A DNA stretch of 64,000 nucleotides from Desulfatiglandales bacterium. GTDB lineage: Bacteria; Desulfobacterota; DSM-4660; Desulfatiglandales; Desulfatiglandaceae. Below the pieces are notes generated by a model, which worked only from the letters and a program-made list of their open reading frames with translations, was not told where the DNA came from and searched no databases. Positions 9,839 to 64,000 of the stretch are shown here, in pieces. Position 1 is the first letter of the stretch; each line of letters starts with the position of its first letter. A program made the position numbers and the translations under genes. The DNA is taken from NCBI GenBank assembly GCA_963666345.1, contig OY762721.1:96001-160000 (forward strand), in the 5' to 3' direction.

Positions 9839-10807
9839 ATGAAATCGTTGATAGAAAAGATCCTTGCAGGTGACGTGAGAACTGTTGCACGTTTGATAAG
9901 AGATATAGACGACGGCATTCCTGATGTAAGGGAAGTTTTGAAGGAACTCTACCCTTTTACAGGCAAGGCCTATGTCGTTGGAATAACAGGTGCTCCGGGT
10001 GTGGGTAAAAGCACCTTGGTGGACCAGATGGTCGCGCACCTGCGGAAAAGGAAAAAAACCGTGGGGGTCCTTGCAGTGGATCCCACCAGCCCTTTCAGCG
10101 GCGGGGCCATACTGGGAGACAGAATCAGGATGCAACGTCACAGCATGGACCAGGGGGTGTTTATTAGATCCCTTGCCACAAGGGGACATTTCGGTGGGCT
10201 GACTCAGTCCACCCGCAGTGCCATAGATGTGCTCGATGCGATGGGAAAGGACTATGTCCTTGTTGAAACGGTGGGTGTCGGACAGGATGAAGTGGATGTA
10301 ATGAAAAGCGTTCATACAACGGTAATAATGGCAATACCGGGGATGGGAGATGACATACAGGCAATCAAAGCGGGAATCCTGGAGGTAGGTGACATATTTG
10401 TTGTAAACAAGGCCGACAGGGATGGAGTCGATAGGACCGTGAATGACTTGAAACAGATGATAGAAATGGATCAGAGAAGGGGAAGGGAAGGGGGATGGAA
10501 GCCACCGGTTATCAAGGCTCAGGCGGTTTTTGATAAAGGTGTGGAAACTCTGCTTGAACAAATAGACAATCATCAGTCGCATCTGAAGGAAACCGATGGG
10601 GTGATAAACTTCAGGAGAAGGAAAAAGATAATAAGAGAGGAACTTGAGGATATGGTAAAAGGCAGGATCTTTGAAGAGGTCAGCCGGCACCTTATAGAAA
10701 CAGGCGCGTTTGAAGATGCAATAGAATCGGTAATTAACGGGGAAATAGATCCTTATTCAGCCTGTGACAACCTTGTATTACCTGCCCTGCGGATTGAAAC
10801 GGAATAA
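9839..10807 (+). CDS. meaB: MeaB/ArgK G-protein chaperone of the mutase
   Basis: GITGAPGVGKST, DPTSPFSGGAILGDRIRM, ETVGVGQ and NKAD. Confidence 0.93.
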   Translation: MKSLIEKILAGDVRTVARLIRDIDDGIPDVREVLKELYPFTGKAYVVGITGAPGVGKSTLVDQMVAHLRKRKKTVGVLAVDPTSPFSGGAILGDRIRMQRHSMDQGVFIRSLATRGHFGGLTQSTRSAIDVLDAMGKDYVLVETVGVGQDEVDVMKSVHTTVIMAIPGMGDDIQAIKAGILEVGDIFVVNKADRDGVDRTVNDLKQMIEMDQRRGREGGWKPPVIKAQAVFDKGVETLLEQIDNHQSHLKETDGVINFRRRKKIIREELEDMVKGRIFEEVSRHLIETGAFEDAIESVINGEIDPYSACDNLVLPALRIETE

Positions 10808-10925
10808 AGGACGGTTTATCCATGAAAGGGGGGTTGTGTTTCCCGTTAGTCAGCTTTTCTATCATGAAAATCTTCGTGAAAACGACTTTTGTTTGAAATC
10901 CTTAAGAGGAGAATATTTACTGTTA

Positions 10926-11171
10926 ATGGGAAGCGTCTTTTGGTGGATAAAACAGGCCTTATTGGTCATTGTAGGTAGCTTTTTTCTCATATTTGGAATT
11001 CAGTTGCTGACTGCTTCATACCGATTTAATGACCCTTTCAGTTTTATTATGACTTTTTTTGCCTCAAATTTCATAATACTTATAAGCGCGACTTTGGTCA
11101 TAGGTTTTATTTGTCGTATTATAAAGGCTTACCGTGAGCGAAGTAAAAAAACAGGAGGTCCCGATGGCTAG
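10926..11171 (+). CDS. Small membrane protein of unknown function (two TM helices)
   Basis: Two hydrophobic stretches in an 81-aa ORF (MGSVFWWIKQ...). Its stop overlaps the next start. Confidence 0.55.
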   Translation: MGSVFWWIKQALLVIVGSFFLIFGIQLLTASYRFNDPFSFIMTFFASNFIILISATLVIGFICRIIKAYRERSKKTGGPDG

Positions 11172-21445: not shown

Positions 21446-23029
21446 ATGGAACAGGGAAAAGGGGATGAAACCAGCCTTATCACCAGCAAGGAAATTCTTT
21501 TTAAGACAGGTATTTCCAGGGCTACACTCAACAATTATATCAAGATGGGAATTATTCCAAAGCCGATCGTGGGCAGGCCTTCCGAAGATCTAAGGGGTGT
21601 CAAAAAGATCGGGTTTTTTCCCAGGGAAGTAGTGGATAGAATAACTCTGGTAAAGGGTCTAAAAAGGGAGGGCCATTCCATGGAGGACATAGCGAGGAGG
21701 TTTAGAGGCGAGACCTCCAGAAAAACGATATCTTTTCAAAAAAAGACAAACAGGACTGAATGGGCACGATCAAAAGGCCGTTACCTTGAAATTGACAACG
21801 TAAAATCAAGAATTGACTCCTCGGACCTTAGCCTGACTGTTGAAAATATCAGTTCTCCCGCTTATCTTATAAACCCGAATTTCGAGATAGAATGGGCAAA
21901 CAGGGAGGCTCAAGAACAGATATTCCACCAGGATCTTTCCAGTATCGCGGAACTTGAATCCAGGAATATATTCAAATTACTCTTCAACTGGGAATTTCAT
22001 GATTCAGTAAAAAACTGGCAGGATATAATTGGCTTGCATCTATCATATGCAGTTTCACGATTCGAAAAAAGAGAAATAGGAGACCTTTATGAAGGAATCA
22101 CCGAAGGCGAAACAAGGTGTCTTGAAAAATTGTATGAAAATCAAACTCCCACTGAAGGCAGAGGTATAAATCACAGTAAAATTGATTTCAAATGGAGAGA
22201 CGAATCAGTCACCGGATTTGAGATATATACCTCTTTTTTCCGTGAGGGATTGTTTTTTGTTTACGTGCCAAAGGAAAAGGAAGATCGAGGAATACTTGAG
22301 CTTCTGTCAAGAAGGGAGAAGGTGATAAATGAACTTCTGAGCCTGAGGATGCCTTCCCTTGTCTCTCTTTGCGTGCTTGTGGCGGATCTCCAGGACTCTG
22401 TAAAGATAAGCGCGGAGCTTCCGCCGGCCGAATATTTTCAGCTGATCAACGGCCTGTGGAGGTCACTGGTAGGTTCTTTTGATATGTTTCACGGTATTTG
22501 CGGAAAACATGCCGGTGACGGAATGCTCTACTATTTCATTAAGAGACCTGGCACGAATTATATAATGGATGCAATAACCTGTGCGGTACAGCTCAGGGAG
22601 AGGACCAAAAGATTCAGTAATGAATGGAAAATAAGAAAAGGATGGCTTCAGGATCTATATTTAAACATCGGAATAAATGAGGGTAAAGAATTTTTCGGTG
22701 CGATTGAATCCTCCGCAAATATTGAATTTACTGCCCTGGGCGATTCCATAAACTCGACTGCAAGGATTTCCGATCTGGCCAGATACGGGTCTATATTAAC
22801 TACTAAAAATCTTATTAATAAAATCTCACCTGAAGATCTTGATTGCGTTTACTACGGCGTAAAGAGAAAAGACAAAGATAGAGATGTTTTTATAGAAAAC
22901 TATTTTTCAAGGGTCAGTGACGTTCTGAAGAATTATGACCTCAACCATTCAAAATTTAATGATATCTCCACTCTTCCAATAACAGAGATAATAGATATAG
23001 TGAAGAGAAAAAAAACCGGCCGGTCATAA
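21446..23029 (+). CDS. MerR/Xis-like winged HTH fused to a class III adenylate cyclase
   Basis: N-terminal ITSKEILFKTGISRATLNNYIKMGIIPKP. Cyclase motifs VADLQDS, KHAGDG, IGINEG and FTALGDSINSTAR. Confidence 0.85.
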   Translation: MEQGKGDETSLITSKEILFKTGISRATLNNYIKMGIIPKPIVGRPSEDLRGVKKIGFFPREVVDRITLVKGLKREGHSMEDIARRFRGETSRKTISFQKKTNRTEWARSKGRYLEIDNVKSRIDSSDLSLTVENISSPAYLINPNFEIEWANREAQEQIFHQDLSSIAELESRNIFKLLFNWEFHDSVKNWQDIIGLHLSYAVSRFEKREIGDLYEGITEGETRCLEKLYENQTPTEGRGINHSKIDFKWRDESVTGFEIYTSFFREGLFFVYVPKEKEDRGILELLSRREKVINELLSLRMPSLVSLCVLVADLQDSVKISAELPPAEYFQLINGLWRSLVGSFDMFHGICGKHAGDGMLYYFIKRPGTNYIMDAITCAVQLRERTKRFSNEWKIRKGWLQDLYLNIGINEGKEFFGAIESSANIEFTALGDSINSTARISDLARYGSILTTKNLINKISPEDLDCVYYGVKRKDKDRDVFIENYFSRVSDVLKNYDLNHSKFNDISTLPITEIIDIVKRKKTGRS

Positions 23030-23382: not shown

Positions 23383-24537
23383 ATGAAGATAATACGCTCT
23401 AGTTTTGAACAGGGTCCCATAAGGCCTCCAAATGAGGCAAGAAGCCTGCTTATTAGGCTAACCAGAAACTGTCCATGGAACCGGTGTCTGTTCTGCCCGG
23501 TGTATAAAAATAAGAAATTTTCCCTGAGAACCGTAAAAGAGATAAAAGAGGATATAATCAATGTTCGGGAAATCTCTGACCATATAAAGGAAATCTCTTG
23601 GAATCTCGGCAAAAAGGGACATGTTGACGACAAGGTTGTGAAAAAGGTGCTTGCCGAATATGGGGATGGTTACCGAAGCATAGCATTGTGGTTGTATTAT
23701 GATACAGGGGCCTGTTTTCTTCAGGACGCCGACAACCTCGTTATGAGCACTAGTGATCTGGTGGATGTCCTAATGTTTTTGAGAAAAAAAATTCCGGAAA
23801 TCACAAGAGTTACGACATATTCAAGATCACGCACCATTGTTAGAAAATCCCTTGAATCTTTGTCAAAAATTCACACTGCAGGACTGGACAGGGTACATGT
23901 CGGACTTGAAAGCGGCTACGATCCGGTGCTTAAGTTGGTCAAAAAGGGAGTCAGCGCACAGCAGCACATAGACGCGGGTAGAAAAACAGTTGAATCCGGA
24001 ATGGAGCTTTCCGAATATGTCATGCCTGGTCTTGGTGGGCAGGAGATGTGGCGTGAACATGCAATCGAGACCGCCCGGGTACTCAATCAAATCAACCCTC
24101 ATTTCATTCGTATTCGAAGCCTGAGGGTGCCCAAGAGGGTACCCCTTTATGAAAAACTGCTTGAGGGCAGTTTCCATATGCAAAGCGATGATATGATTGC
24201 TGAAGAGATAAAGATATTCATCGAGACACTTGAAGGCATTAACAGTATCCTGACAAGTGATCATATCATGAATCTGCTGGAGGAGGTCTCGGGTAAATTT
24301 CCAGAAGAAAAAGAAAAAATGATCGAGGCCGTAAGAAGATATCAGGGACTTACAGATGAAGACAGACTCATATACAGGGTAGGACGCAGAGGAGGAGCTT
24401 ACAGATCAACAGACGATCTGAGCGATGATCCTGCAACCTACGGTAAAATAAGATGCCTTATTGCAGATATAATGGATGAACAGGGGGCTCAGGGCGCCGA
24501 ACAATTCATATCCGACATGGTGGACCGCTACATATAA
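23383..24537 (+). CDS. Radical SAM protein of unknown function
   Basis: RPPNEA..., CPWNRCLFC cluster motif, FLQDAD and HVGLESG. Confidence 0.85.
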   Translation: MKIIRSSFEQGPIRPPNEARSLLIRLTRNCPWNRCLFCPVYKNKKFSLRTVKEIKEDIINVREISDHIKEISWNLGKKGHVDDKVVKKVLAEYGDGYRSIALWLYYDTGACFLQDADNLVMSTSDLVDVLMFLRKKIPEITRVTTYSRSRTIVRKSLESLSKIHTAGLDRVHVGLESGYDPVLKLVKKGVSAQQHIDAGRKTVESGMELSEYVMPGLGGQEMWREHAIETARVLNQINPHFIRIRSLRVPKRVPLYEKLLEGSFHMQSDDMIAEEIKIFIETLEGINSILTSDHIMNLLEEVSGKFPEEKEKMIEAVRRYQGLTDEDRLIYRVGRRGGAYRSTDDLSDDPATYGKIRCLIADIMDEQGAQGAEQFISDMVDRYI

Positions 24538-24566
24538 CCTAGATAAGGGAACTGGACGCAGTAAAA

Positions 24567-25232
24567 ATGAAATATTATCCTGTATATTTAGATATTAAGG
24601 GAAAAAACGCTTTGGTAATAGGCGGAGGTGCGGTCGCTCTTCGTAAGGTTGAAACACTGCTTGAATGTGGCGCGGTAGTTAACATCGTGAGCAGGGAACT
24701 TAACGATGAACTTGAGGGTCTTGTGGGAGATGGGCGGTTGTTTCATAAGGGAGAAATTTTCAGGGATGAACAACTGGAAGGGATGTTTATTGTAATAGCG
24801 GCCACTGACGACAGCGAACTGAATCACAGAATAAGCCGGATGGCCGAAAAGAGAGGCCTTCTCATAAATGCGGTGGACCAGCCTGCTGACTGCAATTTTA
24901 TCGTTCCTTCATTAGTCAAACGTGGAGACCTGTTGATTGCCATATCTACCTCAGGGCAAAGTCCTGCTCTTGCCAGAAGACTTCGAAAGGAGCTTGAAGC
25001 ACAGTTTGCCTGTGAATATGAACTATATCTGGTGCTTATGGGCCGTCTGAGGGAATTAGTCCGTCAAAGTGATCTCTGCCTGAACGAAAGGTCTGATCTG
25101 TTTAAATATCTAACCGAATCGAATCTTTTTGACCTCGTATGCAGAAAGGACAGTAAGGAGATTAAGTCCATGTTGCGGGGGGTTGTTCCGGAAGATATCG
25201 ACCCTGACCATATTGTAGATGAAATTATGTGA
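24567..25232 (+). CDS. sirC: Precorrin-2 dehydrogenase / sirohydrochlorin ferrochelatase (SirC/CysG N-terminal type)
   Basis: YYPVYL, IGGGAVALRK, NAVDQPADCNF and STSGQSPALAR. Confidence 0.9.
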   Translation: MKYYPVYLDIKGKNALVIGGGAVALRKVETLLECGAVVNIVSRELNDELEGLVGDGRLFHKGEIFRDEQLEGMFIVIAATDDSELNHRISRMAEKRGLLINAVDQPADCNFIVPSLVKRGDLLIAISTSGQSPALARRLRKELEAQFACEYELYLVLMGRLRELVRQSDLCLNERSDLFKYLTESNLFDLVCRKDSKEIKSMLRGVVPEDIDPDHIVDEIM

Positions 25233-25246
25233 GGCCTGTGAATAGA

Positions 25247-26077
25247 ATGATTTTTTTGTGGTTCAATCTTGCGCTCATACTTGAACTCTGTGCTACAGGG
25301 GGCTTTGTCGTATATATTTTAAAACAACGTAAAGACATATTCAGATATTCCTATCTGATACTGATTGCCGGTTTCGTCTGTCATACCGTCTTTCTTATAT
25401 ATCAATATCTCCAGATTGGACCTATCCCGGGGGAAAATCTTAAATCCTCATTTTCTTTTTTTTCGTGGAGCATAATTTTTGCCTATCTGATATTTCAGCT
25501 GAGATTCAGGTTAATGGTACTGGGTTCATTTGTTGCACCCTTTGCCGCCTGTCTAATGATTATTTCATCGACAATGCCCTGGGCAGAGGGGCCCTCAGTC
25601 CCCGTCTTTAAAGGACTCTGGCTTCTTCTGCATGTAGGGACGATATTTATGGGCAACGGACTTTTTGCCATAGCCTTTTTGGCCTCAATCATGTACCTGT
25701 TGCAGGAACACTTCATAAAGAACAAAAAACTGGGTCCATTTTATAGCCGTCTGCCTTCTCTTGCTAGCCTAGACAGCATAAACCACTACTCACTTATCTA
25801 TGGATTTCCTTTTCTTACAGCCGGCATGATCACCGGGTCGGTCTATGCCCAGTATATCCTTGGAGCCTACTGGCAGTGGGATCCCAAAGAGGTATGGTCT
25901 CTTATAACATGGCTTTTCTACGCTGCATTGCTTCACGAGAGGATAGCCGCTGGCTGGCGGGGCAGAAGGGCTGCTCTGATGTCGATAGCATGTTTCTGCA
26001 TACTAATATTTACCTTTTTGGGTGTCAGCCTCTGGCTTGGAGGTTACCACAGCTTTGACGCCCAAGTGCTTAGATAA
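25247..26077 (+). CDS. ccsA: CcsA/HemX-family cytochrome c biogenesis membrane protein
   Basis: Multi-TM protein with the WWD motif WQWDPKEVWSLITW and conserved His residues. Confidence 0.85.
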   Translation: MIFLWFNLALILELCATGGFVVYILKQRKDIFRYSYLILIAGFVCHTVFLIYQYLQIGPIPGENLKSSFSFFSWSIIFAYLIFQLRFRLMVLGSFVAPFAACLMIISSTMPWAEGPSVPVFKGLWLLLHVGTIFMGNGLFAIAFLASIMYLLQEHFIKNKKLGPFYSRLPSLASLDSINHYSLIYGFPFLTAGMITGSVYAQYILGAYWQWDPKEVWSLITWLFYAALLHERIAAGWRGRRAALMSIACFCILIFTFLGVSLWLGGYHSFDAQVLR

Positions 26078-26080
26078 AAA

Positions 26081-27382
26081 ATGACTCAGATATTAGATAT
26101 TGGAATGAACCATGAAACAGCTCCCGTAGAGCTCAGGGAATGCCTGTCTTCAAGAGAAGACCACGTTGAAACAGCCATATCCGCGATAAGGTCCTGCCCC
26201 AGCATCACAGAGGGGCTGTTCCTTTCCACCTGTAACAGGGTCGAAATTTTGGTGATTACGGAAGATCCCCATAAGGCAAGGCAGGACATCATGGAGATCT
26301 TTCTTTCACTTGGAGAGATCCCCGAAGAATCGCTTGTAAAAAGCCTCTATACCTTAAAGGGAAAGGAGGCGGTGGAGCATATTTTCATGGTCGCCTCAAG
26401 CCTGGATTCAATGGTAGTAGGGGAACCTCAAATACTCGGCCAGTTAAAGAGAGCCTATGCTGAGAGCGTAAGTAAGAAGACATCCGGAGTAATACTTAAC
26501 AGACTGATGCATAAGGCCTTTCATGTCGCCAAAAGGGTAAGGACAGAGACCGGCATATGCGAGGCGGCGGTGTCGATAAGTTATGCTGCGGTTGAACTTG
26601 CGAGAAAAATATTTTATGACCTTGAAGGGAAAAAGGCCCTTCTTGTTGGTGCGGGAGAGATGGCCGAACTGGCGGCAAAGCATTTGATCGGGCTTGGAAT
26701 AAACTCAATGTTCGTCGCAAACAGGACTTTTGAACGGGCCGTGGAGGTTGCGTCCAGACTTTATGCCAAACCGGTATCTTTCGATGAAATACCTCAGCAG
26801 CTTGAAGAGGCGGACATCGTGATAACATCCACGGGGGCAACCGACTATGTGATTAGGCATGAGCATGTGAAGGCGTGCCTTAAAAAGAGGAAAAATCGGC
26901 TGCTCTTTTTCATTGATATCGCAGTTCCAAGGGATGTTGAACCAAGGGTAAACGACTTGAACAATGTCTACCTATACGATATCGACGACCTCAAGGGGAT
27001 TATCAGTCATAATGTCGCGCAGAGAGGACATGAAGCGGTAAAGGCGGAAAGGATAGTCATTGAGGAAACACTCAGGTTCGAAAAATGGCTCAAGACCCTG
27101 GCCGTCGTTCCCACTATTGTAACCCTCAGAGAAAAGGTGGAAGACATTATTCAATGCGAAATAAAAAAAAGCAATTCGGCACTGAACGATTTAACCCCGC
27201 TTCAGATGGAGGCCGTAAAGGTGCTCACAAGATCGATCGGTGAGAAGGTCTTAAACGACCCGATACTATTTTTAAAGGGTAAGGCAGGAAGGCTGGCTCT
27301 GCATTCATATCTGGATATAACTCGGAAGCTTTTTAACCTTGATACCGACGGACAAAGAGAGAACAATAAAAAGGTAAGGTAG
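26081..27382 (+). CDS. hemA: Glutamyl-tRNA reductase
   Basis: HETAPVELRE, STCNRVE, DSMVVGEPQILGQ, GAGEM and DIAVPRD. Confidence 0.96.
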   Translation: MTQILDIGMNHETAPVELRECLSSREDHVETAISAIRSCPSITEGLFLSTCNRVEILVITEDPHKARQDIMEIFLSLGEIPEESLVKSLYTLKGKEAVEHIFMVASSLDSMVVGEPQILGQLKRAYAESVSKKTSGVILNRLMHKAFHVAKRVRTETGICEAAVSISYAAVELARKIFYDLEGKKALLVGAGEMAELAAKHLIGLGINSMFVANRTFERAVEVASRLYAKPVSFDEIPQQLEEADIVITSTGATDYVIRHEHVKACLKKRKNRLLFFIDIAVPRDVEPRVNDLNNVYLYDIDDLKGIISHNVAQRGHEAVKAERIVIEETLRFEKWLKTLAVVPTIVTLREKVEDIIQCEIKKSNSALNDLTPLQMEAVKVLTRSIGEKVLNDPILFLKGKAGRLALHSYLDITRKLFNLDTDGQRENNKKVR

Positions 27383-36456: not shown

Positions 36457-36915
36457 ATGTTGAACGTAAAAGAAAGCAGGGTAAGCGCCTATCACAATTA
36501 TCTGATAAATGGAATGCTTTCACCCTGTATGCTGATCGGTGAGCAGAACGGGGGTAACGGTTTTTATCTGCTTTTTGATTTTGTATCCCCCGGTGGCAGG
36601 ATGCCCCTTGTAAATGGCACGATTTACGGCCCGCAAAAAGATGTCCTTGCAAGGATCAAAGAAAATGAATTGATTGAAAATCCCGGAGCGTGCTCGTTCC
36701 ATTTCATTCAAGGCGACTTTGCCCTTTCAGCCCCTGACAACAAGGCTATCCTGGTGGCGAAAACCCATGAATTTACAAACGGGTATATGACCACAATCAA
36801 CGCAAGGCTTTATGATGAAAAAGGGATTCTCAGGGTAGAGCCCCTGGGTAACAGTATTCAGGTCCATGGCGAAGCAAATACCGCCCTTACCAGATCGATT
36901 CCCCTACACACATAG
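36457..36915 (+). CDS. Hypothetical protein
   Basis: 152-aa ORF tightly packed between etfA and the cinA-like gene, with an AAGGA RBS. No recognised motif. Confidence 0.65.
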   Translation: MLNVKESRVSAYHNYLINGMLSPCMLIGEQNGGNGFYLLFDFVSPGGRMPLVNGTIYGPQKDVLARIKENELIENPGACSFHFIQGDFALSAPDNKAILVAKTHEFTNGYMTTINARLYDEKGILRVEPLGNSIQVHGEANTALTRSIPLHT

Positions 36916-45275: not shown

Positions 45276-46502
45276 CTAGTAGCCTATGAAGGGGTCGTAT
45301 TTTTCAGGCCTTTTTTCCAGCAGTTTTTTCGCCAGAAACTGGGCACCGGCTCCGTTTTCCATATCCGCCACCTGCCTGTAATAATCACAGGCCCTATCCC
45401 TTTTACCTTCAAAATCAAATGACATGCCTATCTTTATGATAGGCCATGCGATCATCAAAGGATCGTTTTCAGGGTCGCTCTCATCCAGGATTGAATATAG
45501 TTTGGCTCTGGCCTTCCGGTAGGAACCGGAGAAGAGATCCTCTATCGACTCCAGGTAAAGTGCACGTTTCAGCCATGGTAATGATTTATACCGTGCAGTC
45601 TCCTCTTTGCCTCTGTCCCGGAAATAAGAGACGACCTCTCGGTAGCCTTTCCTTTCCCCGATACGCAACAGCGTGACTCCTTTAAGGACCTGATATCTGA
45701 GGTTTTCAGGATATCTGTCCGAAAGAAAATTGGCAAGCACAAGAGCCTTTTGCAGGTCTTCTTCGAGAAAAAGATAGATGTGGAGCAATACGCTTTTTGC
45801 CTCTGTTCTGCAATAGCGCGCCTTGGCGGCGGCGATATTTAGTTCCTTTAACCCCTCTTCTTTTCCGCCCTTCCTTATAAGCAGGTATGAAATAAACTTT
45901 AATACACCTGAAAGCCTTGCAGTGTAATAATCAAACATACCTAACCCCAGAAGGACATCGCTGTCTGAAGGATCCATGGACCGGCAGGTCTTTAAGGCCT
46001 CAACCGCGTCTAGGGCAAGGAAAAAGGCGGAAATCCATTTACCCTTCATCAATTCAAGGCGGCCTTTGAAACCGAGGGCGCCTCCCAGGTAGAGGTAATC
46101 ATGCTTGTCGCCGCCGCTTACCTCTATTCGAGATTTTGCTATATCGATTGTCTTGCCTATGCGTTTTTCATATTCTGCCGAGTTTTGCTTTGTCCAGAAA
46201 CCGTTTGCCATACGGGACCAACTGACCATGGACAAGTAGAAATAGCCGATCGGACTTTCGGGGAGGACCTCTATCGTATTTCTAAAGACAGCATCCGCCT
46301 TAACGAATTCCATATTGTAAAGGCCGTCGATCCCAATTTGTATATCTTCCCTTTCAGATAATCTATCGGGCCGATCGTTGCCTTCCGAGGCCATGCTGCG
46401 TTGCATCAAAAAGAAAATTATGGTGAATGATATAAGAAAAGTTAGTATAAACGTCCAAGGCACATGGGAAACCTGAATGCTCGAAGAATAGTTCGGCCTC
46501 AT
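45276..46502 (-). CDS. Exported TPR-repeat protein
   Basis: N-terminal hydrophobic segment and TPR-like helices (DVLLGLGMFDYY). Start uncertain. Confidence 0.7.
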   Translation of the reverse strand: MRPNYSSSIQVSHVPWTFILTFLISFTIIFFLMQRSMASEGNDRPDRLSEREDIQIGIDGLYNMEFVKADAVFRNTIEVLPESPIGYFYLSMVSWSRMANGFWTKQNSAEYEKRIGKTIDIAKSRIEVSGGDKHDYLYLGGALGFKGRLELMKGKWISAFFLALDAVEALKTCRSMDPSDSDVLLGLGMFDYYTARLSGVLKFISYLLIRKGGKEEGLKELNIAAAKARYCRTEAKSVLLHIYLFLEEDLQKALVLANFLSDRYPENLRYQVLKGVTLLRIGERKGYREVVSYFRDRGKEETARYKSLPWLKRALYLESIEDLFSGSYRKARAKLYSILDESDPENDPLMIAWPIIKIGMSFDFEGKRDRACDYYRQVADMENGAGAQFLAKKLLEKRPEKYDPFIGY

Positions 46503-46867
46503 CGTTTGCTTTTTATCAATCCTTGGAATATCTGGCCTTATCCCCGGCACAGGGAACCTCCTGGAAAATTTTATCAAAAACCAGATAAGTTGATTTTCTA
46601 AATTTTTTACTTAATTTATAACGCTACAAAAAGGGCCGGTTTTAGGCAAGAAAGAATTCGAGCCCATACGAATAGATGTTTGAGTAAAAAGCTAACTCGA
46701 AGAATTTGTTGCTATTTTATCAAAATATGTTATGCTGTTTGATTATTGTTGTTTCTAACTTTCCTTTTGTACGAGGTTCTGATTTATCTTTTTTGTTTTT
46801 AGATAATATATGGAAAAATTTTGTTTGTATAGAATATTGCATATAAACAACCGGGGGACAGTAAAAC

Positions 46868-56955: not shown

Positions 56956-57488
56956 CCTGATTTATATCTCCTGAAAATATAGATAATTCCGATAAGACAT
57001 AATACCCTTTTACCTCACGAAATAAAGGAAAAAGTAACTATCGGGCTGTCTATACTGTCTAAATAAACAGTTTAAAGCCCTGCATGAAACTCAAACGCCG
57101 CTTTCTCCAGGACCGGAATGATGAGGACAAAATAAGGGAGCAGGGCGCGTATTACCTTTCTTGCCTTTTACTCATTTTGTTCACCTTCCTGATCCATTAA
57201 GACAGCGGCATCCTTTGGTTCACTGAAAAAAAGAGGATTTTCAGGATGAAACAATCAGGCAAGGCTTTCCCGGGGCTGTGTAACGTAAAGTAAAATGGTA
57301 ACCGTGCCGTGCCTGGCGCAATAAGGTCTGAAAGTCGGCACACTCGGTTACCGCAAAGAAACAGGGGAGTAAAAATCAAAATCCGGCTTTTATGGCAGAG
57401 CTATTATAAGATTTACAACAGGTTGAAAGACCTGTTATTGTAAATCCCCTGTGAGACAGGCACAAAAAAGAAAAAAGGAAAGACAGAG

Positions 57489-58469
57489 ATGAAAATATCG
57501 GCACATATCAACATCAAACCGCTTAATATAGACCTGGACCGGATAGCAGTGGAATACGGCCCTTTTTCTATGAGCTTCAATTTCGAACTTGAGAAACTCA
57601 TACGATCCATAGGAGTAAACGGCATCATAAATACACCCTTACTTTTTGATGAGGCGGGAGAAAAATTAACAATAATATCTGGTTTCCGACGTATAAAAGC
57701 AGCAGAATCAATGGGAATGACTCATTTGGAATGCAGGGTGCTTACCCCGGATAATATAACCCCGCAGGAATGCCTGGCATTAAATTTCTTTGAAAACATC
57801 TCAACCAGACAGTTTAATGACATCGAAAAGGCCATGGCAATAAACAGGCTTTCAGCACATCTTAAAAATGATGAGGTAAAAGACGAATATCTTCCGCTCC
57901 TTGGCATTTCACCAAGCAAGAGGAATCTCGAACTTTACAAAAAAATTGATTCGGATCTTAGAGACGAAATAAGAATGCAACTGGCAAAGGGCAAGATACC
58001 TATCAAGGTTATCAGGGAAATGCTCGAAATGGACAATGAGACAAGGGAAGAACTCTTTAAGATCATAATTGGTTTCGGCCTTAACAATAACCAGCAGAGA
58101 AATCTTATTGATTTTACAAGAGATTTAGCATCCATAAAGGGCATCTCCCTCAGGGATGTAATAGGCCGGGTGGCAGGTGAAGACATCGGGTGTGAACATG
58201 CAAATCTGCCTCAAAGGGCAAGGTCGCTAATGAAAAAATTGAAGGGCCTGCGATATCCTAAACTGAGTGAGTCTGAGGCAAGATTTTCACGACAGATCAA
58301 AAGGCTGGAACTGCCGAAAGAGGTACGGATAGGTGCCTCCCCCTTTTTTGAAGAACCTTATTATCATCTCGAGATAATGTTTAAAGATGGTATTGAATTA
58401 ACAAGACAACTTAAGGTGATTTATGACGCCGAGGGGATAGAGAACCTCGGTGATCCCTGGTTAGAGTAA
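57489..58469 (+). CDS. ParB/Srx N-terminal domain protein with downstream helical/HTH region
   Basis: LIRSIGVNGIINTP, IISGFRRIKAA (GxRR box) and FENISTRQFNDIEKA. Confidence 0.8.
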   Translation: MKISAHINIKPLNIDLDRIAVEYGPFSMSFNFELEKLIRSIGVNGIINTPLLFDEAGEKLTIISGFRRIKAAESMGMTHLECRVLTPDNITPQECLALNFFENISTRQFNDIEKAMAINRLSAHLKNDEVKDEYLPLLGISPSKRNLELYKKIDSDLRDEIRMQLAKGKIPIKVIREMLEMDNETREELFKIIIGFGLNNNQQRNLIDFTRDLASIKGISLRDVIGRVAGEDIGCEHANLPQRARSLMKKLKGLRYPKLSESEARFSRQIKRLELPKEVRIGASPFFEEPYYHLEIMFKDGIELTRQLKVIYDAEGIENLGDPWLE

Positions 58470-58473
58470 TGAC

Positions 58474-59568
58474 ATGGCGAAAAAGGTAATAAAAAGGGTC
58501 CTTGTTGAAGACGGAACAAGACATCATGAAATGACCGGACGGATTCTCGGCCAGGTCGAGGGGCTGAACATCCTGGATATCGGCCGGGATGAGGCGACTT
58601 TCGATATGGAGCATGGCTGCAAAATGGGAAAAGACACCATGCATCTCCTTTCCTACAGGGGGGAGTTTTTAAAGCCTTGTCCAGGCACAAAAAATTACAT
58701 ATGCTGCGGTTATCAAATACTGAATGTAGCCACAAACTGTCCGATTGACTGCAGTTACTGCATCCTTCAGTCCTATTTTAACCAGCCCAACCTCAGGGTA
58801 TTTGTGAATCTGGAAGAGGAGCTTGAAGGGGTTTTAGCATTTATTGACAGCAACCCTCAAAAAATCTTCAGGGTTGGCACAGGGGAGTTCACAGACAGCC
58901 TTGCGATCGATTCCATTACTGGATGGAGCGACCTTCTCATCCCCTCATTCTCCAAAAGAAAGAACGCCGTTTTAGAGCTGAAGACCAAGACAACCGAGAT
59001 AAGGGACGTGCTTGATTCGCCGTTCAGGGACCGAATAATTATATCATGGTCCCTTAACAGTCCATTTATAACCTCAAGAGAAGAACACAGGGCCTCAGGT
59101 CTTAAGCAGCGGCTGAAGGCCGCACAAATATGCCAGCAGGACGGTTATGTGGTTGGATTTCATTTTGACCCTCTGATAGTCCATCCCGGATGGAAAAACG
59201 GATATCTGAGGACCATTGAGATGATGGAAAAATATCTGGATCCCGAGCGCATAATCTGGATAAGCCTCGGCTCTATGCGATACATACCATCACTTAAGGA
59301 GATAATAAGAAAGAGGCATCCCGGAACCTGCATACTTGATGGAGAATTCGTCCAGGGGCTTGATGGAAAGATGCGTTATTTCAAACCCATAAGGATGGAA
59401 TTATACAGATTCATGAGGGAAAATCTTGAAAAATGGCACCCCCGGCTGGGTCTCTATCTCTGCATGGAATCTGATGAGATATGGAGCAGAACCATGGGAT
59501 GGTCGCCGACAGATTCAGACGGACTTAAGGCTTTTCTTGACGGAAGAGTAATGGAAATTTTCGGATAG
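58474..59568 (+). CDS. Spore photoproduct lyase (SplB)-like radical SAM protein
   Basis: NCPIDCSYCILQSY, GTGEFTDSL, ELKTK, SWSLN, GFHFDP and YLCME. Confidence 0.85.
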   Translation: MAKKVIKRVLVEDGTRHHEMTGRILGQVEGLNILDIGRDEATFDMEHGCKMGKDTMHLLSYRGEFLKPCPGTKNYICCGYQILNVATNCPIDCSYCILQSYFNQPNLRVFVNLEEELEGVLAFIDSNPQKIFRVGTGEFTDSLAIDSITGWSDLLIPSFSKRKNAVLELKTKTTEIRDVLDSPFRDRIIISWSLNSPFITSREEHRASGLKQRLKAAQICQQDGYVVGFHFDPLIVHPGWKNGYLRTIEMMEKYLDPERIIWISLGSMRYIPSLKEIIRKRHPGTCILDGEFVQGLDGKMRYFKPIRMELYRFMRENLEKWHPRLGLYLCMESDEIWSRTMGWSPTDSDGLKAFLDGRVMEIFG

Positions 59569-59626
59569 AATTTAAGGACGGTCCGTGCTATTTGATGTTA
59601 ATCAAATAAATATTTGGGAGGTTGAT

Positions 59627-59854
59627 ATGACATTAAAGGAAAAAGTTCAGGATGCATTAGCTAAGATCAGGCCTTCTCTTCAGGCCGACGGAGGGGATGT
59701 GGAGTTAGTAGATATTGGAGATGACGGCGTGGTAAAGGTTCAGCTGACAGGTGCCTGTAAGGGGTGCCCAATGTCTCAGATGACCCTGAAAATGGGGATT
59801 GAGAAGATTCTTAAACAGAACATCCCTGAAGTAAAAAGCGTCGAGTCTGTATAG
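59627..59854 (+). CDS. NifU-C/NfuA-like Fe-S carrier
   Basis: IRPSLQADGGDVEL and GACKGCPMS. Confidence 0.92.
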   Translation: MTLKEKVQDALAKIRPSLQADGGDVELVDIGDDGVVKVQLTGACKGCPMSQMTLKMGIEKILKQNIPEVKSVESV

Positions 59855-59962: not shown

Positions 59963-60826
59963 ATGGAAATAAAAAAGGTAGGCGTTGTCGGTGCCGGTAC
60001 TATGGGAAGCGGAATTGCGCAGATCGCTGCACAGATAGGCTGCCAGGTTGTGATGAGGGATATAGAGTCTTCTTTTGTCGACCGGGGTATCGCAGGCATT
60101 GAGAAATTTTTATCAAAAGGCATTGAAAAGGGAAAGCTGGATAGTGTTGAAAAGGATAAGATACTTGGAAGAATAACAGGAACGACTGACATGTCGATGC
60201 TTGAGGATGTCGATCTGGCGATAGAAGTGGTCATTGAGGACCTGGCGCTCAAAAAAAAGGTATTCAAGGAGCTTGACGACCTTTGCAGATCAGAGGTGAT
60301 AATCGCATCCAATACTTCATCCATGTCCATTACCGAAATCGCTGCAGCCACCAAACGCCCTGATAAGGTATGTGGAATGCATTTTTTCAATCCCGTACCG
60401 CTCATGAAACTGGTTGAAATTATCCGGGGACATGAAACAAGCGATGAGACCGTTGATAGTGCAACCGGCCTTGCCCGAAAAATGGGCAAAATAACGGTTG
60501 AAGTAAAAAAGGATTCACCAGGTTTCATCGTAAACAGGATTATGATTCCCCACATGCTGGAAGCGATAAAGATAGTGGAAGAGGGTATCGCCACAATAGA
60601 GGATGTTGATACTGCGGTGAAAAACGGACTCAATTATCCGATGGGGCCCTTTGAGCTGATGGACCTTACAGGTATAGATATCGCATACTTTGTTACTGAA
60701 TATTTCTATAAGGAACTGAACAAGGAGTCCAAATGGGTTTCGCCTAATCTGCTCAAGACCATGATCAGGGCAGGAAAGCTGGGAAGGAAGACAGGCGGCG
60801 GATGGTATGATTTCGGAAACCGGTGA
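59963..60826 (+). CDS. hbd: 3-hydroxybutyryl-CoA dehydrogenase
   Basis: GAGTMGSGIA, SNTSS, GMHFFNP, PGFIVNR, PMGPF and GRKTG. Confidence 0.92.
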   Translation: MEIKKVGVVGAGTMGSGIAQIAAQIGCQVVMRDIESSFVDRGIAGIEKFLSKGIEKGKLDSVEKDKILGRITGTTDMSMLEDVDLAIEVVIEDLALKKKVFKELDDLCRSEVIIASNTSSMSITEIAAATKRPDKVCGMHFFNPVPLMKLVEIIRGHETSDETVDSATGLARKMGKITVEVKKDSPGFIVNRIMIPHMLEAIKIVEEGIATIEDVDTAVKNGLNYPMGPFELMDLTGIDIAYFVTEYFYKELNKESKWVSPNLLKTMIRAGKLGRKTGGGWYDFGNR

Positions 60827-60859
60827 GAGACTCTTTCCGCACAGCTCTAATGAGACAAA

Positions 60860-60897
60860 TAAAATGAGGCAGTTTCATATGAGACTGCCTCATTTTT
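60860..60897. terminator. Bidirectional intrinsic terminator
   Basis: AAAATGAGGCAGTTTCA-ta-TGAGACTGCCTCATTTT between convergent genes. Confidence 0.8.
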
Positions 60898-60927
60898 ATA
60901 TATGGAACCTTTTGATATAAAGGAAGG

Positions 60928-61017
60928 CTACTTGTTCTTATGGCGCATCTTTTTTTTGAGTTTTCGGTGTTTGTGCTTTGTGATTTTTTTCCTGCGCTTT
61001 TTTACTACGCTTCCCAT
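60928..61017 (-). CDS. 29-aa AURKAIP1/COX24-domain protein (bS22/mS38-like ribosomal protein)
   Basis: Translates as MGSVVKKRRKKITKHKHRKLKKKMRHKNK with a GGAGGT RBS. Too short for the ORF track. Confidence 0.9.
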   Translation of the reverse strand: MGSVVKKRRKKITKHKHRKLKKKMRHKNK

Positions 61018-61200
61018 TCAATATGACCTCCATGTATTTGTTAGCGATATCTCTAGCATTTCAGCAGAAGGAGTGTCAACAAGTATTTTGATCGGTAAGA
61101 AGAGGAAATGCCCTCCACGGGCGGCAAGGGCAGGCGATAAATCTGAGGTTTTCGTAGACAGGCATATTAGTTTACATAATATATCTTATCAGACGTTACC

Positions 61201-62085
61201 CTAATATCTCTTTCCGCTCTCTTTCTTTTTCCTTTTTCTTTCATACAGCTGTTTGTCGGAACTGTTAACCAGGTCTTCTGCGTTCATCTGTTTCGTGTGT
61301 TCAAAAAAACCGAATGTCGCACCAAGTCCGCACTCCTTTCCGATAGCGGCCTCAATCCTTTCACCAATGTTAAAACCAGCTTTCACGGTAGCACCTATAA
61401 GTATCACGGCGAATTCATCACCGCCGTACCTATAGCCGCTGTCCACCCCCTGTCTGATGTTGGCCTTTATTATCTCGCCTACCTTTTTTAACACCTCATC
61501 GCCCGCAAGATGCCCGTATGTGTCGTTGTAATTTTTGAAATTATCAAGATCAAGAAGTATTAACGACACCTTGTTTCGCTGTCTTGTAGCCCTTGTTATT
61601 TCTTCTGTAAGGCGCATGAAAAAATGCCGCTGGTTAAAAAGGCTGGTTAGGGAGTCGGTAACAGACAGCTCGCTCAATAGGCTCTTTGTGTTACGCTCCT
61701 TTATTGCCCTGATGAATTTAGCCTCCAGTTCCTCGATGCCGAAAGGCTTGTCAATGTAGTCTGTGGCTCCCGAGTTTATTACGTCCATATAACCGTATTC
61801 TGTTGAATATCCGGTCATGGCTATGCAAAGGATCTCCGGGAAATCCGTGGTGATTCGCCCTATTAACTCCAGCCCGTTCATCTCGGGCATCCTAATATCG
61901 GTAAGGACGAAGGTATAAAGATTTTCCTTTGCCTCGATCTCCTCAAGTGCCTTCTTTGCCGATCCGACCGATTCGGAGTTAAATCCAACCGATTTGAGCA
62001 TCTCAACAATCGGCTGCCTGATATCCTCTTCATCGTCAACCACAAGGATAGTTTCTTCGCTGTAATCTATGTTTATCTGTTCCAT
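61201..62085 (-). CDS. Response-regulator diguanylate cyclase (REC-GGDEF)
   Basis: VVDDE, TDIRMP and KPF in the receiver; DLDNFK, GHLAGD and RYGGDEF in the cyclase domain. Confidence 0.92.
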   Translation of the reverse strand: MEQINIDYSEETILVVDDEEDIRQPIVEMLKSVGFNSESVGSAKKALEEIEAKENLYTFVLTDIRMPEMNGLELIGRITTDFPEILCIAMTGYSTEYGYMDVINSGATDYIDKPFGIEELEAKFIRAIKERNTKSLLSELSVTDSLTSLFNQRHFFMRLTEEITRATRQRNKVSLILLDLDNFKNYNDTYGHLAGDEVLKKVGEIIKANIRQGVDSGYRYGGDEFAVILIGATVKAGFNIGERIEAAIGKECGLGATFGFFEHTKQMNAEDLVNSSDKQLYERKRKKKESGKRY

Positions 62086-62121
62086 TTGAAGAAATCCGTT
62101 CGCCCCTGAATTTATAAAGGT

Positions 62122-63438
62122 TCAGACGAGTTCCCCTCTGAGGGAATTTACAAAGGCACTTTTAATTTTTACCTTAACTAGTCTATTTATATTATTGTTA
62201 TTGCTATTAAAATTAACTATTTTATTGCTGGAGGTTCTCCCGCTCATCTGATCACCTCTTTTACTCTTTCCCTCTACGAGAACCGCCACTACCTTATCCT
62301 TAAGCTGGCTGTTTTTCTCGAGGGTGATCTGTTTCTGCAGACTTTGAAGGACTTCCAATCGTGAGCTTTTTTCAGCCTCGCTTACCTTTTTTCCCATTTT
62401 TTCAGCTAATGTACCTTTTCTATCAGAATATTTAAAGGAAAAAAGTCCGTCGAATCTGACCGATCTTACCAGATCCAAGGTGTCCTGGAAGTCATTGTCA
62501 TCTTCACCGGGGAATCCGACCATAACATCGCTTGTAATTGCAATAAAAGGGTTTACCTTTCTCAGTTTTTCTATGAGAAGCAGATAGTCTTCCCTTGTGT
62601 ATCGCCTTCTCATTTCGGAAAGCACCTTGTTTGAACCGGCCTGAAAAGGCAGGTGTATGTGAGGGCAGAGGTTTTCCAATTCACCGAAACATTTGATTAA
62701 TTCATCCGAAAGGTCCTTTGGATGGGACGTGGTAAAGCGCAACCGTAATAGACCTTTAACACCTGACAGCAGCTTAAGCAGTCTGGGGAAACCATAACTT
62801 TCCCCTTCATTCCAGCTGTATGAGTTCACGTTTTGACCAAGAAGGGTTATATCCCTCACATCTTGAGATACGAGGCCGACTGCCTCCTCAAGGATAGAGT
62901 CGGGTGACCTGGAAATTTCCCGTCCCCTCACATACGGCACGATACAATAGGAACAAAAATTATTACACCCTTCCATAATCGATATCTGACCGGATGTTCT
63001 TCCCTTGAAATAGGAGCTGGCGTCCGTTGGCGGAATTGGGGGCCGCCCTTTGGAATCCGTTGCCACTATAGGGTTCCCCCCCCTTTCAAGCAATCTCAGG
63101 GACCCCTTGAATCTATCTATCTGCCTTGGACCCATAACAAGATCAAGCAGCGGAAATCGCTTGATGAGCCCAGCACCTTTTTCCTGCGCAAGGCAGCCGA
63201 TAACAGCCATTTTTATTTCCGGCCTCTTTTTCTTGATCGCGCTCATCCTGCCGAGCATGCTGTAGGCCTTTTGTTCCGGTTTGGCTCTTACCGTGCAGGT
63301 ATTGACAATTAACAAATCGGCCGACTGGGGCTCTTTCAGCTGCACGTACCCCTCACTAACGAGGGTCCTGGCGATCAGATCCGAGTCGTATTCATTCATC
63401 TGACAGCCCATGGTATTGATAAAGAATGTCTTTTTCAA
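62122..63438 (-). CDS. miaB: tRNA methylthiotransferase MiaB
   Basis: GCQMNEYDS, NTCTVR, GCNNFCSYC, RFTTSHP and C-terminal TRAM domain. Start likely the TTG at 63438. Confidence 0.95.
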   Translation of the reverse strand: MKKTFFINTMGCQMNEYDSDLIARTLVSEGYVQLKEPQSADLLIVNTCTVRAKPEQKAYSMLGRMSAIKKKRPEIKMAVIGCLAQEKGAGLIKRFPLLDLVMGPRQIDRFKGSLRLLERGGNPIVATDSKGRPPIPPTDASSYFKGRTSGQISIMEGCNNFCSYCIVPYVRGREISRSPDSILEEAVGLVSQDVRDITLLGQNVNSYSWNEGESYGFPRLLKLLSGVKGLLRLRFTTSHPKDLSDELIKCFGELENLCPHIHLPFQAGSNKVLSEMRRRYTREDYLLLIEKLRKVNPFIAITSDVMVGFPGEDDNDFQDTLDLVRSVRFDGLFSFKYSDRKGTLAEKMGKKVSEAEKSSRLEVLQSLQKQITLEKNSQLKDKVVAVLVEGKSKRGDQMSGRTSSNKIVNFNSNNNNINRLVKVKIKSAFVNSLRGELV

Positions 63439-63451
63439 AAATGAGTTCCCT

Positions 63452-63673
63452 TCATCCTGATATTTCCTCAATTAAAAGCCCCTCTTCCTTGCTGAGGCTT
63501 TCAACCAGGTCTGATAAAAGTGCTTCTCCACCCCGGCTTATGATTATTTCAATTTTAGCATAATAGGGATCAAGAGTGCTTACCTGGGCGAGTCCGTCAT
63601 ACGATTCGATCGTATATCTTAGATAGCTTATATCACGCCTATTCACTCGAAAAATGCGCCTACTGCTTTCCAT
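63452..63673 (-). CDS. DUF4911-like small protein
   Basis: RRDISYLRYTIESYDGLAQVSTLD; lies directly upstream of miaB. Confidence 0.75.
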   Translation of the reverse strand: MESSRRIFRVNRRDISYLRYTIESYDGLAQVSTLDPYYAKIEIIISRGGEALLSDLVESLSKEEGLLIEEISG

Positions 63674-64000
63674 CTTCACACTTCTTGTTAAAGGTGGCCC
63701 CGCCCCACATCAATTTATTCCTGAGTATCTCGTAATAACTCTGGTCGGGCGGCCTTAGAAGTTTTATCTCTTTGTCCGATTTGCACATCACAACCGTGTC
63801 ACCCAATTTGAGATCAAAGCCAACCTGCCCGTCAAATGTAAGGATCACGGCATCCTCGCTTTCGGCAACTATCCCCACACTTATGGAGGCCGTATCCGGA
63901 ACGATTATCGGTCGGTTGGTAAGGGTGAAGGGACAGATAGGCGTCAAGACAAAGCTGTCTACCGTGGGATAAACAATAGGTCCTCCTGCGGAAAGATTAT
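63660..64000 (-). CDS. nadK: NAD kinase, C-terminal part (5' end outside window)
   Basis: NLSAGGPIV, LTPICPFTLTNRP, FDGQ and YYEILRNKLMWG. Confidence 0.92.
   Translation of the reverse strand, partial: NLSAGGPIVYPTVDSFVLTPICPFTLTNRPIIVPDTASISVGIVAESEDAVILTFDGQVGFDLKLGDTVVMCKSDKEIKLLRPPDQSYYEILRNKLMWGGATFNKKCEDGKQ

Follow-up and report, generated by a model that had tools for sequence, protein, structure and literature searches.

A conserved gene pair for a ParB-like protein and a radical SAM protein of the spore photoproduct lyase fold in Desulfatiglandales and related anaerobes

Only two radical S-adenosylmethionine (SAM) enzymes that act on DNA are named in the accessible part of PMC8989533: spore photoproduct lyase (SPL, or SplB), which functions in repair, and phage M6 gp53, which functions in modification. 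Here we describe a locus in a 64,000-nucleotide stretch of DNA from a Desulfatiglandales bacterium (assembly GCA_963666345.1, contig OY762721.1, positions 96,001 to 160,000; hereafter the window) in which a gene for a ParB-like protein precedes a gene for a radical SAM protein with the SPL fold (rSAM), followed by a gene for a small Nfu domain. The three genes, the first two taken from the list of open reading frames (ORFs), are as follows.

57489-58469, plus strand: ParB-like protein, 326 amino acids, stop codon TAA
58474-59568, plus strand: SPL-fold rSAM protein, 364 amino acids, start codon ATG
59627-59854, plus strand: stand-alone Nfu/NifU C-terminal domain, 75 amino acids, with a C-K-G-C motif

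Both gp53 and the rSAM protein are SPL-like. gp53 is an isomerase of a hypermodified thymidine in DNA, where it serves modification and not repair (PMC8989533). Unlike the present protein, it is phage-encoded and 13% identical to SPL, and it works with a pyridoxal phosphate enzyme; no ParB-like partner is described for it in the accessible part of that source (PMC8989533). The ParB CTPase fold is now known to be widely reused (bioRxiv 10.1101/2025.10.10.680097). By analogy, the nearest functional precedent for our ParB-like protein would be DpdB, a ParB-fold ATPase without which DpdA does not exchange bases in DNA (PMC10164549). As in the arrangement proposed here, DpdA-DpdB and DndB/SspE combine a ParB-superfamily gene with an adjacent gene for an enzyme acting on DNA bases (PMC10164549). 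However, DpdB carries a DGQQR motif, hydrolyzes ATP and, in the accessible part of the same paper, forms no stable complex with DpdA by size-exclusion chromatography (PMC10164549), whereas our family carries G[YF]RR, appears to be missing residues for hydrolysis, has a radical SAM partner and is predicted to form a direct complex with it. PADLOC models gave no Dnd, Dpd or Ssp match at the locus. We found no published description of a ParB-like/SPL-like pair in a search that lay outside subscription journals. The accessible main text of the survey of ParB-fold proteins never mentions 'radical', although its supplements may list the family (bioRxiv 10.1101/2025.10.10.680097).

An earlier note on this DNA had described three genes with 4-bp and 58-bp gaps, and the coordinates and the start and stop codons agree with that layout. 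The motifs that it quoted (CSYCIL, GTGEFTDS, GFRR and FENIS) were all found in the translations. Four bases, TGAC, separate the TAA of the ParB-like gene from the ATG of the rSAM gene. The Nfu reading frame has an alternative upstream start (GTG 59585), but ATG 59627 is closely preceded by a GGGAGG ribosome-binding site, and Nfu relatives of 74-75 amino acids share the same start Met; because these two features favor ATG 59627, we set the rSAM-Nfu gap at 58 bp. A promoter/terminator scan, whose counts equaled those expected from shuffled sequence, placed no terminator-like site in the stretch from 59568 to 59627; cotranscription of the Nfu gene with the rSAM gene is probable.

Conservation of the gene pair

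Genomes were scanned from the rSAM side, with one genome per species. At least 585 loci carried the family motifs, and all neighborhood counts given below use the best 80 of these. The 80 loci come from Desulfobacteraceae, Desulfatiglandaceae, Syntrophobacteraceae, Desulfobulbaceae, Desulfocapsaceae and unclassified 'deltaproteobacteria'. ParB-like neighbors were detected with phmmer and a family hidden Markov model (HMM). We found a ParB-like homologue upstream on the same strand in 67 of the 80 loci, and in 60 of the 69 loci whose upstream flank spans at least 1 kb; for 4 of the 13 misses the rSAM gene lies at a contig edge. The ParB-like gene overlaps the rSAM gene or lies no more than 27 nucleotides (nt) away in 61 of the 67, which suggests that their translation is coupled. 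Five loci have gaps of 106-240 nt by ORF calls. In one Syntrophobacteraceae locus (L075:3485-7011), a gene for a 383-residue GGDEF-domain protein lies between the two.

A quick maximum-likelihood tree was built from 79 rSAM sequences, with those from loci L011 and L065 omitted as too short. On this tree adjacency of the ParB-like and rSAM genes changed only twice and was present in both main clades. A Syntrophobacteraceae-type clade (43-47% identity) retains the pair even though the other synteny is gone. The pair that the earlier note expected to recur in other genomes does so, at 67 of 80 loci, across deep divergence and with two changes on the tree, and the adjacency exceeds chance. Thermodesulfobacteriota are a phylum not known to form spores. 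The relatives belong to this phylum, in keeping with the note's description of the host as a probable non-spore-former.

The third gene is a less constant companion. Its product matched Pfam NifU (PF01106) at 107.3 bits, but scored 56-66 bits against the NCBIfam NfuA and NifU equivalogs, which have cut-offs of 268-273; in the case of NfuA (TIGR03341/PRK11190; 66 bits versus 269) only profile positions 101-177 of 190 were covered. An Nfu gene was found downstream in 43 of the 80 loci (42 of the 77 whose downstream flank is 600 nt or longer), and its presence changed seven times on the rSAM tree. Downstream sequence of 2.5 kb or more is available for 62 loci; 32 of these have the Nfu gene, 20 of them together with a neighboring 3-hydroxyacyl-CoA dehydrogenase gene. 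Separately, 23 loci have the ParB-like gene but no Nfu. The earlier suggestion that the Fe-S carrier is an integral part of the module did not stand, given its presence in 42 of 77 loci, its seven changes and its co-travel with unrelated syntenic genes; it is instead a plausible lineage-specific Fe-S carrier helper. As for NfuA with LipA or MiaB, a CxxC Nfu domain stands beside a radical SAM protein with extra invariant cysteines. Here, however, the protein consists of the 75-residue Nfu domain without the A-type N-terminal domain, its linkage is lineage-specific and the auxiliary cluster is putative. In lipoyl synthase, the auxiliary cluster is sacrificed and then rebuilt by carriers of the Nfu type (PMC9585516).

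The two proteins and their predicted complex

The rSAM protein matched the Pfam SPL family (PF20903) at 102.7 bits, well above the cut-off of 27, so that broad family membership, as proposed in the earlier note, was recovered by the HMM search. In contrast, the score against the NCBIfam equivalog for SPL (TIGR04070, photo_TT_lyase) was 108.1 bits, below the cut-off of 400. Among the candidates scored, 5123 relatives reached E <= 1e-3; identity is 60-69% for the best of them, which carry the annotation 'DNA photolyase' or 'spore photoproduct lyase'. The solved structures related by sequence were solely those of Geobacillus SPL, with E values of about 1e-17 for the single sequence and 2e-33 for the family profile. 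The AlphaFold2 model (predicted local distance difference test, pLDDT, 89.8) matched SPL structures 4FHC, 4FHE and 4RH0 in Foldseek with template modeling (TM) scores of 0.75-0.85 over about 342 columns at 22% identity, and the second-best structure was pyruvate formate-lyase-activating enzyme (E 2e-5). Because the superposition spans the whole chain and the next structure is far weaker, we consider the rSAM protein a full-length SPL-fold enzyme.

Residues were mapped by pairwise alignment to Geobacillus SPL, and invariance was taken from the 79-sequence family alignment. In common with SPL (Geobacillus thermodenitrificans 4FHC-4FHG, 4RH0 and 4K9R), the rSAM protein has the whole-chain fold, the CX3CX2C cluster motif (C89-x3-C93-x2-C96, with all three cysteines invariant) and the aromatic residue before the third cysteine (Y95, equivalent to Tyr96). 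The SAM-contact residues are also kept: D141, K172, S193 and R269 correspond to Asp143, Lys174, Ser195 and Arg273, the last of which touches both SAM and phosphate in SPL (PMC3467042). A β-hairpin at residues 292-302 (strands 292-294 and 300-302) occupies the same place as in SPL and is invariant at G295, D297, K299, R301 and Y302. The SPL hairpin has been proposed to flip the lesion out of DNA.

The substrate pocket differs from that of SPL. The H-atom donor of SPL is Cys140 in Geobacillus and Cys141 in B. subtilis, and this position is occupied by E138, a Glu in 79 of 79 sequences. At the position of Tyr98 (Tyr99 in B. subtilis numbering), the rSAM protein has I97, and the family has Ile in 69, Phe in 9, Val in 1 and Tyr in none of the 79 sequences; substitution of both canonical residues, which the earlier note had read from the sequence, was therefore seen in the alignment to SPL. 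Tyr98 is strictly conserved in SPL, and Arg193 and Glu268 are its base-recognition residues (PMC3467042). The equivalents of these two are S191 (Ser in 49, Ala in 29, Gly in 1) and S264 (Ser in 79 of 79), and Val232 and Ala234 are replaced by H230 and D232 within F-H230-F-D232-P. Tyr339 of SPL falls outside the aligned region. E138, H230, D232, W192, S264 and R269 are invariant, as are four extra cysteines (C69, C77, C78 and C330; 79 of 79), and C220 is present in 78 of 79. Relative to SPL, then, H230, D232, W192 and the four cysteines are invariant additions, in a protein that is found in non-sporulating Thermodesulfobacteriota with a dedicated ParB-like partner. Because the rSAM protein scores below the equivalog cut-off and differs at three functional residues of SPL, we do not class it as SPL. 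It represents a new subfamily within the SPL fold, whose pocket is rebuilt and rich in Cys, and the note's reading of an SPL-like enzyme with substituted canonical residues holds.

The fate of the H-atom donor is less simple. An invariant loop, C69-P-G-T...C77-C78-G-Y, lies between strands 66-68 and 81-83, and by its topology in the model it would be the SPL loop that grips the 3′ thymine through Ser76, Lys77 and Ser79. Clostridium SPL has its donor Cys at the Ser76 position and Ala at position 140 (PMC3467042). The family profile aligned best to the C140A/S76C mutant structure 4RH0, with C78 on S76C in a gapped region of the alignment. The note's reading that Cys141 is substituted stands for that position, but a donor Cys may still be present as C77 or C78, at or next to the clostridial position. 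Alternatively, C69, C77, C78 and C330 might serve as ligands of an additional cluster.

Plasmid (31 records) and phage (2 records) collections held only distant SPL-family relatives, all less than 30% identical. No close relative of the rSAM protein was found in the phage collection, the two matches being at most 27% identical: MT835514.1 and MT835770.1, unannotated contigs, encode distant SPL-family proteins with identities of 27% and 22% across roughly 90% of the query length. A single metagenomic protein of 781 amino acids (P0272) combines an SPL-family domain with TrmE_N and MnmE-type GTPase domains and may be a gene-calling read-through.

The ParB-like protein consists of three regions.

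Residues about 12-125: ParB/sulfiredoxin (Srx)-type N-terminal domain (N-domain), with G65-F66-R67-R68 and E102-N103...R107
Residues about 127-200: helical middle domain of the helix-turn-helix (HTH) type
Residues about 200-326: family-specific α/β C-terminal domain (C-domain), with R255, P257, F287 and E288

Assignment to the ParB family by HMM search, as in the earlier note, succeeded only in part: the Pfam ParB_N score of 18.6 bits fell under the cut-off of 26.3, whereas the NCBIfam models noc (E 8e-11) and parB_part (E 7e-9) matched, both sub-threshold. A sequence search of the PDB gave matches to Noc and ParB. The AlphaFold2 model (pLDDT 95) gave as top Foldseek matches CTP- or CDP-bound ParB (7BNR, 6SDK, 7BNK), Noc (7NG0, 7NFU) and KorB (8QA9), with E values of 2e-8 to 1e-5 and probability 1.0 over 200-225 columns that comprise the N-domain and the HTH region. 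Weaker fold matches, to sulfiredoxin, SerK and SbnI, covered the N-domain only. Pfam found no ParB_C domain. In the ESM Atlas, the matches of the C-domain were limited to unnamed clusters of its own family and, at weak TM scores of 0.35-0.41, clusters bearing ParB_C. We use the name ParB-like because the protein has the ParB fold but a ParB_N score below the cut-off, and is without ParB_C, ParA and parS.

A word-indexed search returned only the protein itself and one relative at 89% identity, which was misleading when set against an exhaustive search. The latter returned 2868 ParB-like representatives with E <= 1e-3, of which 109 had E <= 1e-30. Nearly all of these 109 are 320-335 amino acids long and align end to end, at merely 25-39% identity, which marks the ParB-like proteins as a fast-evolving yet distinct family. 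Conservation at the ParB motifs was measured in 107 family members.

Box I Ser: S40, 99%
Box I Gly: G45, 99%
GERR Gly: G65, 100%
GERR Glu: lost; Tyr in 53, Phe in 32 and Glu in 1 of 107
GERR first Arg: R/K67, 93%
GERR second Arg: R68, 100%
ENLQR Glu: acidic residue kept; Asp in 65 and Glu in 41 of 107
ENLQR Asn: N103, 97%
ENLQR Arg: R107, 98%, shifted toward the C terminus by one residue relative to ParB
QPR box: G-P-[Y/F], Arg lost

Loss of the GERR Glu, which the earlier note had reported for this protein, is a family trait, with Tyr or Phe in 85 of 107 members. Its companion statement, that the EN motif is kept, holds for the acidic residue and the Asn, but the family form is [DE]N and the QPR Arg has been lost as well. 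The family shares with the ParB, Noc and KorB clamps the N-domain and HTH region, Gx[RK]R, Box I Ser...Gly and [DE]N...R, and differs from them in its GP[YF] box, its Tyr or Phe for the GERR Glu and its sub-cut-off ParB_N score. Its C-domain is also different and is predicted to bind an enzyme instead of, or besides, dimerizing. Moreover, no ParA gene was found among the 58 other ORFs of the window that were compared with Pfam, and we found no conserved parS-like site upstream of the pair.

Mutants of Caulobacter ParB give these substitutions a possible meaning. The changes R60A, S74A, G79S, R103A, R104A, N136A and R139A abolish CTP binding, whereas Q58A and E135A leave CTP bound but not hydrolyzed; E102A, which alters the GERR Glu, allows CTP binding and clamp closure but neither hydrolysis nor re-opening, and the non-hydrolyzing PadC has Phe at the Q58 position (PMC8367383). 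Judged by motif spacing, five of the seven CTP-binding residues would be in register in our family, a sixth shifted by one and R60 absent, and two of the three hydrolysis-linked residues would be missing. Because most CTP-binding equivalents are kept and two of the three hydrolysis residues are lost, any nucleotide would likely be bound without being hydrolyzed. The naturally Glu-less GxRR box would then mimic the 'clamp-locked' E102A form of Caulobacter ParB (PMC8367383).

Co-folding of the ParB-like and rSAM proteins with family alignments gave ipSAE interface scores of 0.84, 0.83 and 0.84 in three runs, compared with 0.00, 0.00 and 0.29 for the controls. The co-folding check proposed in the earlier note was passed by this margin (0.84 versus 0.29 for the best control). 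Of 157 solved complexes, 116 also reached this mark, as did 2 of 215 mismatched pairs; both counts apply only roughly to the present pair, which was run with our own alignments. The three runs share at least 97% of contacts, with partner pLDDT of at least 83. On the ParB-like side the interface comprises residues 211-216, 255-262, 285-290, 322 and 324, including the best-conserved residues of the C-domain (R255, 90%; P257, 99%; F287, 93%; E288, 100%). On the rSAM side it comprises residues 279, 284-296, 303-306, 333 and 335, and so takes in both flanks of the hairpin, while hairpin residues 297-302 (with D297, K299, R301 and Y302) lie outside the confidently touching residues. To our knowledge no structure of a ParB-SPL complex exists for the model to have memorized, and there was none among the Foldseek matches. 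The model supports binding between the two proteins through the C-domain and the hairpin, and we conclude that the pair is real and conserved and probably forms a physical complex.

Proposed mechanism and alternative explanations

The reading that we favor, tentatively and somewhat short of calling it probable, is that the ParB-like and rSAM proteins are two subunits of one enzyme, with Nfu as an optional helper. The rSAM subunit would carry out radical chemistry on nucleic acid, most likely DNA, with a substrate other than the spore photoproduct. It would do so with a retained cluster, SAM-binding residues, phosphate-binding Arg and protruding hairpin, and with a rebuilt substrate pocket (Glu for Cys140, loss of Tyr98, Ser for Arg193 and Glu268, His230, Asp232 and the Cys-rich loop). 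The ParB-like subunit would grip the hairpin flanks with its C-domain in the cell, contribute DNA contact and probably nucleotide binding through its ParB-type HTH region and N-domain, and likely hold the nucleotide without hydrolyzing it. In this lineage, Nfu may load or re-load the Fe-S cluster on the rSAM subunit. A large SPL-fold family in non-sporulating anaerobes, in at least 585 species genomes, would then point to a third radical SAM activity on DNA, and a ParB-fold protein that docks a radical enzyme by its own C-domain would be a new use of the fold. As both proteins are small and probably soluble, the pair is open to direct biochemical testing.

Several observations weigh against a DNA-acting, nucleotide-binding two-subunit enzyme. 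On the ParB-like side, the ParB_N match is below its cut-off, the HTH region has few conserved positions, R107 is offset by one residue from the ENLQR Arg, and the family has Tyr or Phe for the QPR Arg, at the position where the equivalent Caulobacter change (R60A) abolishes CTP binding. In the accessible part of the ParB-fold survey, 17 of 28 purified ParB-fold proteins tested bound no NTP, and ligand specificity could not be predicted from sequence or AlphaFold3 (bioRxiv 10.1101/2025.10.10.680097). A repeat search found no inverted repeats 5′ of the pair, and a scan of 45 of 55 upstream regions found no conserved palindrome or parS-like site. The 80 loci share wider synteny in many cases and are not independent, so the counts partly reflect shared ancestry: the block downstream of the trio (59963-63998, encoding 3-hydroxyacyl-CoA dehydrogenase, a response regulator-GGDEF protein, MiaB and NAD kinase) is syntenic in 33-46 related, Desulfobacteraceae-type loci. 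Finally, no ParB-rSAM fusion was found, although this is weak evidence.

A further objection comes from relatives of the rSAM protein with a different neighbor. Nine of the 69 testable loci have no ParB-like neighbor. At eight of the nine, all of Desulfobulbales, the stop codon of a generic family 2 glycosyltransferase (GT2) gene overlaps the rSAM start codon (L066:5067-7089, L068:5078-7086, L072:5081-7086, L073:2511-4498 and four more; rSAM 43-46% identical), while at L063 the ParB-like gene is entirely absent. The eight Desulfobulbales-type loci form one well-supported clade on the rSAM tree, with GT2 in the place of the ParB-like gene, RNase G/E upstream and a single-stranded DNA-binding protein (SSB) gene downstream. 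A GT2-rSAM fusion of 681 amino acids (P0273) was also found, as a single sequence that may be a gene-calling artifact. Positions of the predicted interface show no greater divergence in the ParB-less clade than in a distant ParB-bearing clade, matching the consensus of the main clade at 7 and 9 of 18 positions, respectively, against a background of 144 and 163 of 282, a comparison that carries little weight. Because this clade is coupled to GT2 and lacks the ParB-like gene, the rSAM protein does not strictly depend on the ParB-like protein and its substrate may not be DNA; the sister clade warns against assuming a DNA substrate.

A substrate other than DNA is the basis of the alternative that survives best, although we consider it unlikely. 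In this case the rSAM protein, with an auxiliary Fe-S cluster bound by C69, C77, C78 and C330, would modify a protein, glycan, lipid-linked or small-molecule or nucleotide substrate, and its partner would be an enzyme or adaptor that depends on a nucleotide, comparable to SerK, SbnI or sulfiredoxin. Invariance of the four extra cysteines (79 of 79), an adjoining Nfu carrier in 42 of 77 loci, GT2 coupling in the sister clade together with the one fusion, and the presence of Srx, SerK and SbnI among the weaker N-domain fold matches are all consistent with it, and Nfu-type carriers are described as rebuilding the sacrificial clusters of radical SAM sulfur-insertion enzymes (PMC9585516). However, the top fold matches are to the N-domain and HTH region of the DNA-binding proteins ParB, Noc and KorB rather than to kinases, and the rSAM protein keeps the SPL hairpin and the phosphate-binding Arg.

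The ParB-like protein might instead act only as a transcriptional regulator of the operon, without partnership with the rSAM protein. Bacillus SplA, a regulator encoded upstream of splB, would be one model for this and KorB another. The ParB-type HTH fold, the position of the ParB-like gene as first in the operon and an imperfect palindrome at 57412-57441 over a promoter-like site fit such a role. On the other hand, co-folding outscored its controls and put the best-conserved residues of the C-domain at the interface, in 61 of 67 loci the genes overlap or are at most 27 nt apart, no upstream palindrome is conserved across loci, and the nucleotide-pocket residues are 93-100% kept. We regard a purely regulatory role as distinctly improbable.

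A bolder version of the two-subunit reading is more doubtful still. Here a nucleotide-locked ParB-type clamp would load onto DNA and carry along it the rSAM enzyme, which would draw on a sacrificial four-Cys cluster fed by Nfu to install or remove an as yet unknown modification of chromosomal DNA, in a housekeeping rather than a defensive capacity. The hosts are anaerobic sulfate reducers and syntrophs, and the modification might be a sulfur-containing or otherwise radical-derived base.

There is little room for the proposal that the rSAM protein is a true spore photoproduct lyase of the clostridial type, with C77 or C78 as donor and the ParB-like protein helping to locate lesions. The complete SPL fold, the invariant R301-Y302 of the hairpin, the Ala at position 140 and Cys at the Ser76 position of clostridial SPL (PMC3467042) and the best profile alignment on the C140A/S76C mutant 4RH0, with C78 over S76C, are in line with this proposal. 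Against these stand the TIGR04070 score of 108 versus a cut-off of 400, the Ser or Ala at base-binding Arg193 and Ser at Glu268, and the invariant additions E138, H230 and D232. The hosts are, moreover, anaerobes that are not known to sporulate. That the adjacency is incidental synteny of related genomes with no functional link is hardly credible: the wider block (3-hydroxyacyl-CoA dehydrogenase, response regulator-GGDEF, MiaB, NAD kinase) is common to many of the 80 loci, but the pair outlasts it, with 23 loci that have the ParB-like gene without Nfu and a Syntrophobacteraceae clade that keeps the pair, and the overlapping start and stop codons and the co-folding result also speak against chance.

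Surroundings of the locus

Besides the trio, the window has 58 non-overlapping ORFs of 80 amino acids or more, which were compared with Pfam at E <= 1e-5. None matched a ParA-type ATPase family, and the statement of the earlier note that the window contains no parA held for all 58. The matches include acyl-CoA metabolism, methylmalonyl-CoA mutase, TRAP and branched-chain amino-acid transporters, heme and molybdopterin genes, MiaB and NAD kinase. Going by these matches, the trio lies among ordinary housekeeping chromosomal genes without mobile or defense context, with transport and acyl-CoA metabolism represented in its flanks. A role in defense was considered and rejected, as PADLOC gave no system and matched the ParB domain weakly to a methyltransferase model (E 3e-5). 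A mobile origin was likewise rejected; PHROGs matched generic ParB-like families only and nothing for the rSAM protein. Four ORFs had no Pfam match at this threshold: 21446-23029 (527 amino acids), 45276-46577 (433), 36457-36915 (152) and 10764-11171 (135).

The imperfect palindrome at 57412-57441 has arms ACAACAGGT / ACCTGTTAT and a 6-nt loop. It overlaps the sole plus-strand promoter-like site 5′ of the ParB-like gene and is not kept among the related loci examined. Elsewhere in the window, within 23383-27382, a second and unrelated radical SAM gene (384 amino acids) lies directly 5′ of sirohaem-synthase-like, cytochrome-c-assembly-like and glutamyl-tRNA reductase genes, and its product may be an enzyme of the heme or sirohaem pathway.

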